47,035 bases of DNA. It comes from an archaeon. Lineage in GTDB: Archaea; Nanobdellota; Nanobdellia; SCGC-AAA011-G17; VGLX01. The stretch covers positions 1 to 47,035 of the forward strand of contig JBDRNX010000022.1 of assembly GCA_043810595.1 (NCBI GenBank), in the 5' to 3' direction. The notes under the pieces are model-generated. The model did no database searches, was not told the origin of the DNA, and saw nothing but the letters and a program-made list of their open reading frames with translations. A program made the position numbers and the translations under genes. Below, in pieces: positions 24,393 through 30,146 of this stretch; position 1 is the stretch's first letter, and the number at the start of each line of letters is the position of its first letter.

Positions 24393-24809
24393 TCACTTAT
24401 TCTCTTTTTCCTTACCCTTCAAATAAACGTTCTCTGCAGCAAGCTGCTTAGCAGTAAAAGCATAATGGTGCAGCTGTGCAAGCAACTCGTTAAGCAGGTA
24501 AGCATAATCAACACCGGACAACTCAACCTTCTCAGGAGAAATAATCTCGACAGAAGAAGGCATGTAATCAAAGCAGACATCCATAAGCTTCTTCAAAGAA
24601 ACAGCCTCTATATCAACATCAGAAAAACTACTCCACATGGGTTTTATCTTGTCATTCTGCTCAGCAGCATACGTGGCATCCTTAAGAAGCTTCACACCCT
24701 CCTCCTTCTTCAACTTATCAATAACCATCTTCATGGTCTGATCAACATGCTCCTTAGGAGAACCTAGAAGCTCGATAACAAGCTTTGCTCTAATTTTTTG
24801 ATTTTCCAT
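24393..24809 (-). CDS. conserved archaeal hypothetical protein
   Basis: IELLGSPKEHV...S.FS.VDI...FDYMPSSVEII.P pattern; TTTATTAA box 24 nt upstream. Confidence 0.8.
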   Translation of the reverse strand: MENQKIRAKLVIELLGSPKEHVDQTMKMVIDKLKKEEGVKLLKDATYAAEQNDKIKPMWSSFSDVDIEAVSLKKLMDVCFDYMPSSVEIISPEKVELSGVDYAYLLNELLAQLHHYAFTAKQLAAENVYLKGKEKENK

Positions 24810-24926: not shown

Positions 24927-25397
24927 ATGGTGACAAAAAAAACAGAGTACAACCTACAAGAAAGACTGAAAGAAGCAACCACAAGCATACTGAATTCTGC
25001 TAGAAGAGAATACAGAAAAAAGATGGACTATGTAATAGACACTATTTTCTCAGAAGATGATATCAAAAAAATACTCACAGGGACACAGAGAATAGACAAG
25101 CTACTAAGCTACGTAAAATCGGCATACGGAAGGGAAGAACCACGCGGGGGGGAACGAGAAAGAAGATGGGAACAAAGACAAGCACTCATAAAAAAACTTG
25201 AAGACTACTCGCTAAGCGACATAATCCCAAAAGAAGAACTAAAAAAGAGGACAGGGCTCAAACTGAGACAACTGTTTGGGTATACTTTGGGAAATGATTC
25301 GGTACTAATCAAAGTAGATCCGCTTCACTACAAGATAAACCCAAAAAACAAGGAACGCCCCAAAGATTTAAAAAAAAAGAAAGGCCGCACTTCATAG
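24927..25397 (+). CDS. hypothetical basic protein; possible -1 frame extension to 25462
   Basis: 156-aa ORF with TATA cttataaa at about 24892-24899. Ends just after an A9 run; the -1 frame is open to TAA at 25460-25462. Confidence 0.7.
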   Translation: MVTKKTEYNLQERLKEATTSILNSARREYRKKMDYVIDTIFSEDDIKKILTGTQRIDKLLSYVKSAYGREEPRGGERERRWEQRQALIKKLEDYSLSDIIPKEELKKRTGLKLRQLFGYTLGNDSVLIKVDPLHYKINPKNKERPKDLKKKKGRTS

Positions 25398-25504: not shown

Positions 25505-26284
25505 ATGAAAAAGGGGCAGATAACACTTTTTGTCATACTAGGCGCTGTTCTGTTAATACTAATCCTACTTGTATTCACATTCAGGGAGACCCTGATGGAA
25601 CAAGCAACAAAGGTAGGAATACCAACAACGATAGCTATGAGCAAGGAAGCAAAAGAAGTGCAAAATGAGATGACAAGATGCCTGAGAAACAGCGCAGAAA
25701 CGGGGCTGATAACGATGGCATTACAAGGAGGCTATGTCATGTTTGATCCGAAAACACCCTACACAGAAGCAACAACAACGATGTACTACATACCATACGT
25801 TGGAACAGCGTACCTGTACTACAAAGGAAAAAACATGGTTCCAACAAAAGAAACCATGGAAAGACAACTAGAGGGTTACATAACAGCAAATTTAGAGATA
25901 TGCGAAAAAGACTATTCTGGCCTGGAAGTCGAATACGGGGACTATGACACAAGCGTAACCATAGAAGAAAACCAAGTCAGCATCGACATAAACACAAAAG
26001 TAAGCGTAACAAAAGAAGAAACAACAAGCAGCTTCAGAGACATATACATAGAAGTGCCGGTAAGACTTGGGGGACTAAGGGACATAACAAACCAGATAGT
26101 GGAAGAACAGGTAAAGACAGGAAAAGAGGGAATATGCCTAAGCTGCATATCAAGGATAGCAGCCAACAACGACGTGGAAATAAGCATAGACCGGGTAGGG
26201 GAAGACGTATTTTACATGCTAACAGACCAAAAATCAAAACTAGCAGGAGAAAACTACATATTCATAATGGCTAACCAATTTTAG
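25505..26284 (+). CDS. class III signal peptide (archaeal pilin-like) protein
   Basis: MKKG|QITLFVILGAVLLILILLVF prepilin-type N-terminus; ALQGGY motif. Confidence 0.8.
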   Translation: MKKGQITLFVILGAVLLILILLVFTFRETLMEQATKVGIPTTIAMSKEAKEVQNEMTRCLRNSAETGLITMALQGGYVMFDPKTPYTEATTTMYYIPYVGTAYLYYKGKNMVPTKETMERQLEGYITANLEICEKDYSGLEVEYGDYDTSVTIEENQVSIDINTKVSVTKEETTSSFRDIYIEVPVRLGGLRDITNQIVEEQVKTGKEGICLSCISRIAANNDVEISIDRVGEDVFYMLTDQKSKLAGENYIFIMANQF

Positions 26285-26287
26285 AAA

Positions 26288-28354
26288 ATGAAAAACAAAA
26301 CAAAAATCCTGATAACGGCAATCCTAATGACGCTAATCCTAGCCGTCAGCATAAAGGCATCGATATTTGCAACTATAGGAATGAAAGGATTGAGTTTTGC
26401 TAACCCTGAGGCAGCACAGATAGTACAAACTGTGATCAGCCTGCAAGACCCAGCATCTTTCGTAGGAGGATATGTCGTAGGACAGATAAGCGGAGAATTG
26501 GTAGGGGAGATAGCAAAACAGAGTCCAGAAGCAGCACAGGCAATAAGGCAATACAACGAAATACAGGGATGGGTGCAAGAAGGAGCACAGATAGTAGAAG
26601 AAGTAAAACTAAGCGACAAGGGAGAAATGGCAGGAGGGAAAATAGCGATAGGAGAAGAACAAGACGTATCATTCCTACTAAACTCAAAAGCAGAAAGGGG
26701 AAGCACTAAAGTAAGCAACATGGAAATATCAACGGCAGGAGAAGACCAAGACATAACCTTCACAGCCAAAGAAGGAGGAGTTACGGAAATAAATGGGAAA
26801 AGATATGAAAACCTAAAAAAGGGAAGCAAACTAATAGCTGACAGAGAAGGGCAAGTCAAAGAAGCAGACATGACATTCACGAAAGCAACAAACCTCGAGC
26901 TTGGCGGAAGAAAAATACAAGCAGCAGAGGGAATGAGGGTTGTTTACAAAGACGGGGTAATAGACGTTTACGGGAAAGGACAAACAGTAACCGTAGACTC
27001 GCAAAAAATAGGCATAAACAGCGACAACGTAAAAATAGACCAACAAAAAATCACAGGAGAAGACTTCACACTGGACAACAACAGGTTCACAAGCACAAAA
27101 GAAGGGGAACTCGCAGAAGTAACAACAAAAAATGAAGGATACTTACTAGGAAAGAATACGCAAGCTGAAACAAACAACCTCATTGTAAATTCTGAAAACG
27201 GAAACGTCCTACTATCAAAAGGCTGCCAGAATATAGGCGGCTTTTCAAACTACGCAAACCCATGCGGAAAAACACTAACCATGGAAGGAAACGGCTTTAA
27301 CGTGGCACTCAAAGAAGGACAGCAATACGGCCTTGACATAGAAAAGGGAGACACGCTAAAATACGAGATGGCCGGCGGGAAAGTTGTACTAAAAGACGGA
27401 GAAGAAGCAATATCAACCGCAAAAGGAAGGGTCATAGTAACAAACGGAGATGTAAAAATACAGTATAGAAATGCAGACGGGGTAACACAAGCATTTGTGG
27501 ACCCAAATGACGTAGGGGAACATCCAGACGTCAAGGTCGTGACAAAATACGATGAACTAACCACACTAGCAGACTCAGAAACAGGAGCAGAAAACGTCTA
27601 CGCATGCTCAGCAGAGGGAACAGGAGCTATAACAGGGGGAGCAACATTCTGGGAAAGATGCAAATCGCTACTGGGAATGAACACCCAAAAGATAAACGAA
27701 CTAGTAGGACAGCCGCTCTGGGAAGGTGAAACCATAACAGAGGAAAAAGAAACCAAAAAATATGAAACGTCAGACGGCAAAACAGTATACACAAAGATAA
27801 TAAGAACGAAAGATGCGAGCGGAAAGGAGCACAGTTACTCCATGTCAAGCGACGGAACAGTATACGAATGGAACTACCAGAGGAACAGATGGGAAAAACA
27901 GGACTACACGCTAGAAGAAGATTCCCTTACAAGCCTGGGAATACCAAAAACAGAAACTGCACTAGCAAAAGCACCCACAGAAACAATAACACCAAAAAAA
28001 GAACCTAGCATGCTAGGGGCCCACATGCAAAGGGGAGAACAGGAGTGGGAAGCAAGAAGACAATACGCGATGAAACTAAGCGTATGTGGGGATGACGGAA
28101 GAACACAGTGCACACAAAAAGACTACTTCCTACCAACCGGACTTAGCTTAGAGCAACTGGAAAAATCAGGAAGGGGCTACGTAAAAATACAACCAGCACC
28201 GTACAAAGGACTGCAGGGACCGATAACAGCACCCGGTTACATAGTGGAGATACAAAAAGACCCGAGAGGGGGTTACATACTGCAGTCAATAGACTCGCAA
28301 ATCTCATTCAAGCCAGTCGGAAACAAGGGCGTAGTAAAACTAATTTCTCAATAA
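26288..28354 (+). CDS. large secreted protein of unknown function (688 aa)
   Basis: N-terminal signal peptide, Gly/Thr/Glu beta-rich body, internal AITG motif; starts 3 nt after the pilin-like gene. Confidence 0.8.
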   Translation: MKNKTKILITAILMTLILAVSIKASIFATIGMKGLSFANPEAAQIVQTVISLQDPASFVGGYVVGQISGELVGEIAKQSPEAAQAIRQYNEIQGWVQEGAQIVEEVKLSDKGEMAGGKIAIGEEQDVSFLLNSKAERGSTKVSNMEISTAGEDQDITFTAKEGGVTEINGKRYENLKKGSKLIADREGQVKEADMTFTKATNLELGGRKIQAAEGMRVVYKDGVIDVYGKGQTVTVDSQKIGINSDNVKIDQQKITGEDFTLDNNRFTSTKEGELAEVTTKNEGYLLGKNTQAETNNLIVNSENGNVLLSKGCQNIGGFSNYANPCGKTLTMEGNGFNVALKEGQQYGLDIEKGDTLKYEMAGGKVVLKDGEEAISTAKGRVIVTNGDVKIQYRNADGVTQAFVDPNDVGEHPDVKVVTKYDELTTLADSETGAENVYACSAEGTGAITGGATFWERCKSLLGMNTQKINELVGQPLWEGETITEEKETKKYETSDGKTVYTKIIRTKDASGKEHSYSMSSDGTVYEWNYQRNRWEKQDYTLEEDSLTSLGIPKTETALAKAPTETITPKKEPSMLGAHMQRGEQEWEARRQYAMKLSVCGDDGRTQCTQKDYFLPTGLSLEQLEKSGRGYVKIQPAPYKGLQGPITAPGYIVEIQKDPRGGYILQSIDSQISFKPVGNKGVVKLISQ

Positions 28355-28404
28355 AAGAAAAAGTAAGGGCAAAGCTGAAAGAGGTCAAAACAGCTCCACC
28401 CCTA
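28354..28404 (-). terminator. hairpin plus U-tract on the minus strand
   Basis: 5'-UAGGGGUGGAGCUG-[UUUUGACCUCUUU]-CAGCUUUGCCCUUA-CUUUUUCUUUU; fully paired only in the minus-strand sense. Confidence 0.55.
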
Positions 28405-28486
28405 AATGACTAACGCCTTGGAGGTCTAATTGGAGGTAATCAATCAGAATGACAGGCATCATGCATCTGATTGATGCTCTAAGAGC
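28354..28486 (-). ncRNA. candidate small RNA with three anti-SD (ACCUC) motifs
   Basis: Minus-strand TTTATTAA box (28507-28514); 5' mini-hairpin; 10-bp perfect stem; two ACCUCCAA repeats; 14-bp terminal stem with 4 G-U pairs followed by a U-tract. Confidence 0.55.
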
Positions 28487-28617
28487 AAATACAATAGAAA
28501 AAAGGCTTAATAAATAACTTATGAAGACGAGATAAAGAAATTAGTTGCATAAGCTTTAAAAACGAATTTTAAGGCTTCAGCGAAAACTTTAATAATAAAC
28601 AGGCTCACACATAAATC

Positions 28618-28926
28618 ATGCCAAAAACAAAAGAACAGAAGAAGAAAGAAATCGAGAGTGGCGAGGCAGAAGAAAACATCTACAGCGAAGAAGGCAGGGA
28701 AGAGATGTTCGAAGAAGATGATGAATTAACTGACATAGACGAAGGATTCATGAAAGGGTATGAAGAGGGAGCAAAATCAGCAAAATGTCCTGTCTGCGGC
28801 CAAGTCGTAGAATACGACTTCGTGGAAAGAGAGATAGACGATGACGTGTACAGATTCTGCTCAGAAGAACACGCCGACCTCTACATGAAAAAAATAAACA
28901 GAAGAAGAGAACACAGAAGGGTCTAG
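28618..28926 (+). CDS. acidic small protein with C-terminal TRASH/YHS-like metal-binding domain
   Basis: Very acidic N-terminal half; KCPVCG...VYRFCSEEH. Confidence 0.75.
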   Translation: MPKTKEQKKKEIESGEAEENIYSEEGREEMFEEDDELTDIDEGFMKGYEEGAKSAKCPVCGQVVEYDFVEREIDDDVYRFCSEEHADLYMKKINRRREHRRV

Positions 28927-30146
28927 AAGAACCTCGAAAGTTTAACCTGTTTCTTTATATTTTCCAACATTTTACTTGAAGAAAAAATAAAATTCAAATC
29001 ATACTTGAACTTATCCTTCACGAAAATCCTAGCATAGTCTAGCAGGGCCTCCTTAGAATCAAAATTAACAGGAGTCGAGCCCAGAGCCTTCCTGCTGGCT
29101 TCCCTCACAACCCAAACACCCAAAGGAACAGCATACTCCCCTGTTATGAACCTCAACGCAAGCACACTCGCCTGCCTTTTGGATTGGGCTAATCTTTCTA
29201 ATATGGGAAGCCTCGCAGCATAATAACCGCCAGCAGTAGAATCAGCATATCCCTTCCTCCCATCATAAGACTCGTAATCTGTAGAGAATTGAACCTCAGA
29301 AGAAACATTCCAAGAAGCCTTAGGCAAATAAGTCTCAAACAACTCATAAGACCACACATCAGAAAAGAAAAGAATAAGATAATAATTACCCAAGTAACCA
29401 CCAAAATAAGCCTGGTAAGGAGAAAGGGGATAGTTCTTAACCTCAGAAATGAAATTCTTACCAAGAGTATCATCGACAGCAGTAATCGACCACCTTGTCG
29501 GGACAAGCTTACGATTCTTCTTCAGACCAAGGTTACCTATGGATAAAATCCTGGACAAAAAATTCTCATCAAACTCATTACCATAAAGATAGAGCACAGC
29601 ATCAGCAGCCTTAAGATCGGTGTCAGAAACAACCTTCTCAACCTTCTGAGAAACTTTCGGATTCTCAGTAACACGAACTTTTTCCAACTGAGCGTGAGGA
29701 CCCATGGGAGCAACTACATCGTTAACGTTGACAAAAAACTTAGGCTTCTTCTTCAAATTGACCTCGACATCGACAGGCTTCGAAGCCATACCCACCTCCT
29801 GGGCAATGCTAAGAAACTTGCTCTGCTGTTTGACATTGATGTTAAAGCGAGAGTTCACCAGGGAAGAACGCAAATCAACCAATTCTGCAATGCGATAATC
29901 GTTAGAAGACCAAAAACGAGGAGAGTCATAACGCCAGGCATCATCAGCGGTGTAAGGAGGACTCAAAATACCAACGTTAAGAAAAGGATAGCCAACATGA
30001 CCAACAAAAGGAGCAGGAGAAGAACCATAAAAATCCTTCTCAACAAGCTTTTTCACCCTGAACCTAGCCTCAGACTTAGACAAGATAGGACAGAACGACC
30101 TACCACACATCCTCCTACCTTTACACTTAACACAAAGAATATTCAT
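28923..30146 (-). CDS. nreA: Nre family DNA repair protein
   Basis: CVKCKGRRMCGRSFCPI Zn finger, FVGHVGYP, RKLVPTRWSITAVD, GGYYAARL, PLGVWVVRE, C-terminal PIP box QVKLSRFF. Confidence 0.93.
   Translation of the reverse strand: MNILCVKCKGRRMCGRSFCPILSKSEARFRVKKLVEKDFYGSSPAPFVGHVGYPFLNVGILSPPYTADDAWRYDSPRFWSSNDYRIAELVDLRSSLVNSRFNINVKQQSKFLSIAQEVGMASKPVDVEVNLKKKPKFFVNVNDVVAPMGPHAQLEKVRVTENPKVSQKVEKVVSDTDLKAADAVLYLYGNEFDENFLSRILSIGNLGLKKNRKLVPTRWSITAVDDTLGKNFISEVKNYPLSPYQAYFGGYLGNYYLILFFSDVWSYELFETYLPKASWNVSSEVQFSTDYESYDGRKGYADSTAGGYYAARLPILERLAQSKRQASVLALRFITGEYAVPLGVWVVREASRKALGSTPVNFDSKEALLDYARIFVKDKFKYDLNFIFSSSKMLENIKKQVKLSRFF

Follow-up and report, generated by a model that had tools for sequence, protein, structure and literature searches.

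A minus-strand archaeal element with the look of an anti-Shine-Dalgarno RNA is probably the shell of a deleted small-protein gene

Repeated C/U-rich seeds directed against the Shine-Dalgarno (SD) sequence are found in bacterial small RNAs (sRNAs) such as the staphylococcal UCCC-motif RNAs (RsaE) and the streptococcal 'cuckoo' csRNAs. In the dual-function sRNAs SgrS/SgrT, RNAIII/hld and SR1/SR1P a small open reading frame (ORF) forms part of the RNA and is dispensable in some lineages. We know of no sRNA biology established in DPANN-type cells, and a limited literature search on that subject brought nothing pertinent to the surface. For haloarchaeal translation, a functional interplay between the 5' and 3' untranslated regions (UTRs) has been reported (PMC2636863). 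The DNA analysed in this study, referred to as the window, is 47,035 nt long and is contig C22 of the assembly of one genome, G000 (815 kb in 45 contigs, 40.6% G+C, 92% complete). Between two plus-strand genes of the window, one encoding a 688-aa protein and the other a 102-aa protein with a TRASH-like domain, there is a gap of 263 nt (28355-28617), the minus strand of which carries a structured element. An earlier note, made from the sequence alone, had taken this element for a dedicated non-coding sRNA with several anti-SD seeds. Comparison with relatives leads us to a different reading, which we consider probable, namely that the element is the decayed cassette of a small-protein gene, ie an inherited shell with no dedicated function in trans.

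Firstly, 60 related genomes and G000 itself were searched at the DNA level, and the gap was found only in three genomes of the same genus (G001, G002 and G003). A scan of metagenomes with a 20-mer from the invariant box returned 25 stretches, two of which were true homologues: L221, which is G001-like, and L230. The latter is the nearest relative of the window, its TRASH gene being 92% identical in DNA compared with 82-84% for the others. L230 contains the same promoter block, then GGCAGGAGGTGCTTT, an ATG opening an ORF of 71 codons, a TGA and, directly after it, TTGATTACCTCCAATTAGACCTCCAAG and the end of the contig; the small gene has its own GGAGGU ribosome site. G003 encodes a homologue of 79 aa (58% identical) with the SD sequence GAGGGAGGT, and this gene is followed by TGATGATCCTCCAGG, which contains CCUCCA, and then by a hairpin and a T-run. 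The unit is therefore the messenger RNA (mRNA) of a 71-79-aa protein in two of the six homologous loci (L230 and G003), and the last 12 codons of that protein are still to be read in the window. The idea of a dedicated non-coding sRNA gene does not survive these observations.

When the window is aligned with L230, 206 nt of the relative are replaced by 15 nt, GTATTTGCTCTTAGA (28492-28478, minus strand), a net loss of 191 nt. Over 149 upstream positions the two flanks show 9 mismatches and 2 gaps of one base. Homology resumes at the last 12 codons and stop of the small protein gene (28440..28477, minus strand; TGA at 28442-28440), where the window reads ..I-N-Q-M-H-D-A-C-H-S-D-stop and L230 reads ..M-N-Q-M-H-N-A-C-H-Y-D-stop. 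The remnant codons are in register with the end of the L230 ORF, and 6 of the 31 remnant positions differ between the two loci, as against none of the 30 positions of the 3' UTR. About 59 codons of the small gene, with its start codon and SD, are missing from the window, so the family protein cannot be made in G000. One or more deletions removed these parts and left the promoter box, the 3' UTR and the terminator intact. Contigs assembled from two DNA sequencing runs, X1 (28315-28702) and X2 (28367-28529), span the scar with zero differences, and no intact allele was observed in them; since both bridge the scar unchanged, the deletion allele is not an assembly error.

A relatedness tree was built on the 309-nt TRASH gene. 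The three loci that, apart from the window, lack the ORF (G001, L221 and G002) group together in this tree (support 92/98), and the end points of their deletions are unlike those of the window. Because these loci cluster while the nearest kin of G000, L230, is intact, the ORF has been lost at least twice in the genus.

All the features described in the earlier note are present where it had placed them, ie the promoter-like box, the 10-bp stem, the motif pair, the 14-bp stem with its G-U pairs, the loop and the T-run, and each can now be given an origin. The mini-hairpin, with a G at 28486 and GCTC/GAGC arms at 28486-28483 and 28479-28476 (minus strand), lies mostly in the scar. The perfect 10-bp inverted repeat (28475-28466 with 28448-28439) is made of the codon remnant and the stop region, both arms falling almost wholly within the former. 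Neither structure is present in any of the relatives. The two tandem ACCUCCAA motifs (28418..28437, minus strand) are the start of the ancestral 3' UTR, right after the stop codon, and are identical in L230; on the plus strand they appear as TTGGAGGT twice, 12 nt apart, which on the minus strand corresponds to ACCTCCAA at 28437-28430 and 28425-28418. The 14-bp hairpin (28364..28404, minus strand) pairs 28404-28391 with 28377-28364 around a 13-nt loop (28378-28390), contains four G-U pairs, and is recovered by both folding and alignment. Its loop carries GACCTC (GACCUC in RNA) at 28386-28381. This hairpin is the 3' end or terminator of the small gene. With the coding part deleted and the same 3' end shared by intact relatives, the CCUCC motifs and the hairpin are to be seen as an inherited 3' UTR.

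The hairpin begins 10 nt past the stop codon of the 688-aa gene, and beyond it the T-run TTTTTCTTTT (28353..28362, minus strand) abuts that stop codon from the opposite direction. Termination at oligo-T is established in archaea, and the T-run is likely to serve as such a signal here. A stem followed by a T-rich stretch stands at the end of the unit in all five loci that could be compared, with the pairing kept. At the other end, the TATA-like box 2, TTTATTAA (28514-28507, minus strand), overlaps a 17-mer, CTTCATAAGTTATTTAT (28510..28526, minus strand), which is invariant in 6/6 loci. A second copy of TTTATTAA is found at 24840-24833, 23 nt before the ATG of a minus-strand leaderless gene starting at 24809, and in L230 and G003 a box of this type sits 54-60 nt before the ATG of the small ORF. 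A further TATA-like box, box 1 or TTTTTAAAG (28554..28562, minus strand), is conserved in six loci at the 5' edge of the cassette and may serve as an alternative promoter or belong to an upstream operator. At the level of sequence the unit thus has a promoter and a terminator of its own, and both have been conserved in relatives, as the earlier note would lead one to expect.

The limits of the whole cassette remnant, 28355..28564 on the minus strand and antisense between the 688-aa and TRASH genes, were set by alignment with an empty site. On contig C28 of G003 (L191, G003:C28, 379-441) only about 57 nt separate a 688-like gene from the TRASH gene and there is no cassette between them; the intact cassette of that genome is on contig C19, beside different genes. 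Homologous cassettes are also present in G001, G002, L221 and L230. These positions suggest that the cassette is an autonomous, relocatable unit, or else that the site is a hot spot for insertion and deletion. No target-site duplication was seen when the G003 empty site was compared with the window.

The protein lost from G000 is Met/His-rich, of a metal-binding type, and begins with a hydrophobic helix. A profile made from the two intact proteins was run against 1.84 billion proteins and gave 23 representatives at E<=1e-3. The family alignment (A4) contains 18 of these together with the two queries; the giant P0004 and P0018 (match to the hydrophobic stretch only) and P0008, P0013 and P0016 (two matched stretches) were left out. 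Common to all aligned members are the N-terminal hydrophobic helix and the pattern M-D-x-M-H ... D-P-E ... M-x-x-M-H-x-x-C, the last part of which is the C-terminal motif represented by ..NQMHDACHSD* in the window. Members are 70-110 aa long, and matches occur in 12 of the 401 genomes sampled from the phylum. The shared pattern argues that the family is real; it has no family name so far. Pfam gave only sub-threshold matches to Metal_resist, in 3/20 members, and a sequence search of the PDB gave nothing below E = 0.1. P0002 found only itself among 5.8 billion proteins; among 240 genomes of the order its sole strong match was in G003, the genome that was also the only one returned when related loci were sought with a 3-row family alignment. 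In G000 (92% complete) there was no protein or profile match to the family anywhere, ..NQMHDACHSD* being all that is left in the window. CCTCC within 130 nt after the stop codon was present in 0/9 loci of distant family members, so the 3' UTR motif is specific to the genus and not a trait of the family. As a separate observation, a family member in G053 (L239/L252, G053:C21:22271-22515) is broken by an in-frame TAA and has CACCTCTTTTTT as its 3' flank; from its sequence it may be another decaying copy.

The minus strand is strongly structured. From 28354 to 28490 (137 nt) its predicted energy is -44.8 kcal/mol, against a shuffle mean of -28.7 (sd 3.5), which gives z -4.57 with 0/200 shuffles as good. 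The corresponding plus strand reaches -34.0 kcal/mol (z -2.35, 4/200 shuffles as good) and forms only the top of the hairpin. Folds of the whole gap give z -3.50 for the minus and -2.65 for the plus strand. The minus orientation proposed earlier is therefore borne out by the fold energies, as it is by the G-U pairs and by the direction of the homologous ORF. Whether the RNA is begun at 28486 or at about 28528, the three CCUC motifs are predicted to be unpaired (0.80-0.94), the value for the ACCUCCAA motifs being about 0.8, in line with the claim that they are single-stranded; they are complementary to the SD and conserved in relatives. Every one of the five loci that extend far enough has CCTCCA, GGG, GCTGTTT, ACCTC and TTTCAGC unchanged, together with the top and loop of the hairpin; CCTCCA is also present in L230, which is not one of the five. 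The stem is paired in 87% of 70 cells of the alignment, compared with 41-53% when the partner strand is slid, and 4 pairs change on both sides. Its covariation score was reached by 10/500 shuffles of the five kin loci, which gives modest support to a hairpin in a minus-strand RNA.

The first motif had been likened to the 3' end of 16S rRNA. The rRNA of this genome ends in ...GCUGGAUCACCUCCU (also read as CACCUCCU / GGAUCACCUCCU), and GAUUACCUCC is identical to it at 9/10 positions. Of this likeness to the rRNA only CCUCC(A) is conserved in the relatives. Taken by itself the motif pair is unremarkable, as 66 pairs of CCTCC 5-30 nt apart on one strand occur in the 815-kb genome (about 30 expected, Poisson); it is the fold and the conservation that are of note. 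Only one copy of the element exists in G000: apart from it, the 21-nt top and loop of the hairpin had no match at <=3 mismatches, two other hits having 4. A covariance model of the 3' module gave strong matches in 4/101 genomes, which are those used for training, and the next best had an E of 0.008; there was no credible match outside the one genus among these 101 genomes. Scans of the genome collection with the hairpin pattern (75 stretches) and the 17-mer (100 stretches) coincided in 3 records, all of them the same-genus genomes. Three of the archaeal records with a single pattern (L084, L147 and L157) were inspected and taken as chance matches.

These results suggest the following history. 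The intact cassette consists of the promoter block, a short leader with GGAGGU, the ORF of 71-79 aa, a 3' UTR that opens with CCUCC motif(s), a hairpin with ACCUC in its loop and a T-run. The relic in G000 probably still yields a non-coding minus-strand RNA of about 130-175 nt. Originally the CCUCC motifs and the hairpin most likely worked in cis, in forming or stabilising the 3' end and perhaps in masking the SD of the same mRNA, and the motifs would not have evolved as seeds against other genes. In the RNA of L230, which is cut by the end of the contig and is without the hairpin, the predicted structure pairs CCUCC of the 3' UTR with GGAGGU of the same gene (P 0.96, and also in the minimum free energy and centroid structures). 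Such modelling makes masking of the SD in the intact gene possible; of the two proposals the safer is that the hairpin and T-run form or stabilise the 3' end. If transcribed, the relic would look much like the anti-SD decoy that was proposed earlier.

Several observations weigh against an inherited shell of this kind. The ORF was lost on at least two occasions, and each time both ends of the cassette were kept. The empty site of G003 shows that the neighbouring genes do not need them. Identity between loci is 67-95% for the 3' module and 51-69% for third codon positions in TRASH, the module being the higher of the two in 10/10 pairs, which are not independent of one another. In G001 and L221, which both lack the ORF, identity is about 92-95% for the 5' block and for the 3' module, the latter having only 3 mismatches in about 60 positions, and the stretch from box 2 to CCUCCA can barely be aligned. 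Two substitutions derived in G000 (28473 and 28447; G003 agrees with L230) have turned a stem with 8/10 pairs into the perfect 10-bp stem; the chance of two such stem-closing changes was roughly estimated at a few per cent, in a post hoc reading. As to the cis role, pairing of CCUCC with the SD is not predicted in the complete mRNA of G003 (P 0.06). A search of sequencing runs found the locus in DNA runs only and in no RNA run. The retained ends, the conservation of the module and the stem changes together hint at a function that has outlived the ORF.

The alternative that survives best, unlikely as we judge it, takes up that hint: the relic would have been exapted, the ORF-less cassette being kept since its RNA acts in trans, either by pairing of CCUC(C) with the GGAGG(U) sites of SD-led mRNAs or by titrating an RNA-binding protein. 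It would then be a dual-function RNA that had lost its ORF, which amounts to the earlier sRNA idea with a different origin. The repeated ORF losses with both ends retained, the independence of the neighbours, the stem-closing substitutions and the advantage of the 3' module over synonymous sites, also within the ORF-less pair, all speak for it, as do the accessibility of the three motifs from either start and the invariance of CCTCCA, GCTGTTT, ACCTC and TTTCAGC in 5/5 loci. G000 also makes use of GGAGG. Among 770 crudely called ORFs (beginning at the first ATG, >=100 aa, without shadow ORFs) GGAGG has a peak at -15 to -9 and is found before 52, 157/770 having some SD-like motif, and TATA-like hexamers cluster 28-31 nt upstream of the ATG, which is the mark of leaderless genes; the earlier description of the genome as a mixture of leaderless and SD-led genes was a fair one. 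However, only six related loci are known, all of them close kin, and the element is single-copy and restricted to one genus. Each ORF-less lineage has a length and sequence of its own between the promoter and CCUCCA, G002 has a changed box 2 (TTTATCAG), and an anti-SD motif of 5-6 nt has no target specificity. Intact genes carry the motif as well, so its origin does not lie in a role in trans. An anti-SD function of the leftover RNA must accordingly be rated low, and the fully specified version, in which loss of the ORF with retention of promoter and 3' UTR has left a ~130-175-nt RNA whose three exposed CCUC(C) motifs, beside a stable 3' hairpin, act as decoy or repressor of the roughly 5-20% of genes that are SD-led in a reduced and mostly leaderless genome of nanoarchaeal type, is doubtful.

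Less probable still is that the ends persist as DNA or cis elements of the neighbouring genes and that RNA is irrelevant, the 5' block being an operator or promoter of the divergent TRASH gene and the hairpin with its T/A-run a terminator of the 688-aa gene. The 5' block (28507-28564, minus strand) consists of TTTTTAAAG, then CTTATGCAA, about 18 nt and TTCATAAG, the half-sites CTTATGCAA and TTCATAAG forming an imperfect inverted repeat when read by eye, and its distance from the start of the leaderless TRASH gene is 40-110 nt. A paralogue of the first 75 nt of the cassette, 76% identical, stands in G000:C27 (L009 1494-1573), in front of a 108-aa Cys-rich ORF, which suggests a site for a shared regulator. 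The TRASH protein and the 108-aa protein of C27 have no similarity to each other. From these resemblances the 5' block may be a promoter/operator module shared by small metal-type proteins. At the other end, the closeness of the hairpin to the 688-aa stop codon would suit a terminator of that gene, and the convergent gene of L221 is the same one. Against all this, G003 has the TRASH and 688-like genes side by side with neither element, the G-U pairs of the hairpin would be A-C mismatches in a plus-strand transcript, and this reading gives no account of CCUCCA, which is invariant and lies 15-25 nt upstream of the hairpin.

That the plus-strand 22-aa ORF (28449-28517) is the real conserved element is scarcely credible: it has GGAGGT 12 nt before its ATG, but in L230 and G003 the small protein gene runs antisense across this stretch, G001 has only a different 10-codon frame after GGAGGT, G002 has no ATG after it, and the ORF is not conserved in relatives.

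Known classes of RNA were also considered. A scan for transfer RNA and transfer-messenger RNA found none. The comparison with Rfam that had been suggested gave 0 matches at gathering scores, the best permissive one scoring 13.7 bits where the threshold is 50 (E = 3). Archaeal C/D-box sRNAs have the consensus C = RUGAUGA and D = CUGA with flanking guide sequences. AUGAUGC and CUGA occur in the codon remnant, which is deleted in G001, L221 and G002. In G002 and G003 UGAUGA belongs to the region of the stop codon, and no D box follows. The C/D-box reading was dropped for lack of conserved boxes.

The 5' block contains a frame of 23-29 codons (MQLISLS.LHKLFIKPF...), at 28550-28479 on the minus strand of the window, which begins just after TATA-like box 1. 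In L230 (1012-1101) its stop overlaps the start of the small gene (ATGA), and in G001 and L221 it has GTG and other changes. Substitutions across the six loci are not coding-like by eye, and a coding reading of this frame was set aside.

The genes on either side are as follows. At E<=0.01 Pfam gave no match for the 688-aa protein (gene at 26288-28354) or for the proteins of 259 aa (25505-26284) and 156 aa (24927-25397) encoded by the consecutive plus-strand genes before it. A homologue of the 688-aa protein occurs in L221 (53% identical), and G003 has a C-terminal match to it (35% identical). The TRASH gene (28618-28926, plus strand) encodes an acidic protein of 102 aa whose match to the TRASH domain is sub-threshold (21.9 bits, cut-off 27). 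In front of it, TTTAATAATAAA (28586-28598, plus strand) is centred about 26 nt before the ATG at 28618; this position fits the genome-wide TATA peak, so the gene looks leaderless. The next neighbour is an Nre-family gene on the minus strand (28923-30146). Nre follows the TRASH gene in G000, G001, L221 and G003, and other ORFs do so in L230 (1-638) and G002 (L190); this variation among close relatives marks the neighbourhood as one that is prone to rearrangement.

The present results are mainly a correction. A convincing sRNA look, complete with promoter, stems, seeds and terminator, is best read as the shell of a deleted small-protein gene, and this is a warning for sRNA calls made from sequence only in reduced genomes. 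They have also brought to light a Met/His-rich family without a name, a relocatable mini-cassette with its promoter block, and a 3' UTR module that has outlasted its ORF. Should that module prove functional, it would be a rarely documented case in archaea of an mRNA 3' UTR giving rise to a regulatory RNA, and a handle on the control of SD-led translation in DPANN-type cells. The element is thus ordinary in origin, with a residue of conservation that the deletion alone does not explain.

Among described systems the locus is closest to a unitary pseudogene, here of a small secreted or membrane-anchored Met/His-rich protein (A4), of which the promoter, 12 codons, the stop, the 3' UTR and the terminator are kept. 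It differs from a plain decaying pseudogene in that its two ends are better conserved than neutral sites, also across the ORF-less lineages. It can be set beside the reported haloarchaeal 5'-3' UTR interplay (PMC2636863) in that CCUCC of the 3' UTR is paired in prediction with GGAGGU in the L230 mRNA, a pairing that is not predicted for that of G003. Like RsaE and the 'cuckoo' csRNAs, the predicted RNA would be short and structured, with single-stranded CCUC(C) in loops and linkers, complementary to GGAGG SDs, and a hairpin with a U-run at its end. Unlike them it belongs to an archaeon, its motifs are the 3' UTR of a protein gene, it has no Rfam match, was not found outside one genus among the genomes searched and is known here from sequence. 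The resemblance to SgrS/SgrT, RNAIII/hld and SR1/SR1P lies in the combination of a small ORF and a conserved non-coding module in one unit, the ORF being missing in some relatives; in contrast to those RNAs, base-pairing by the non-coding part is here a prediction.

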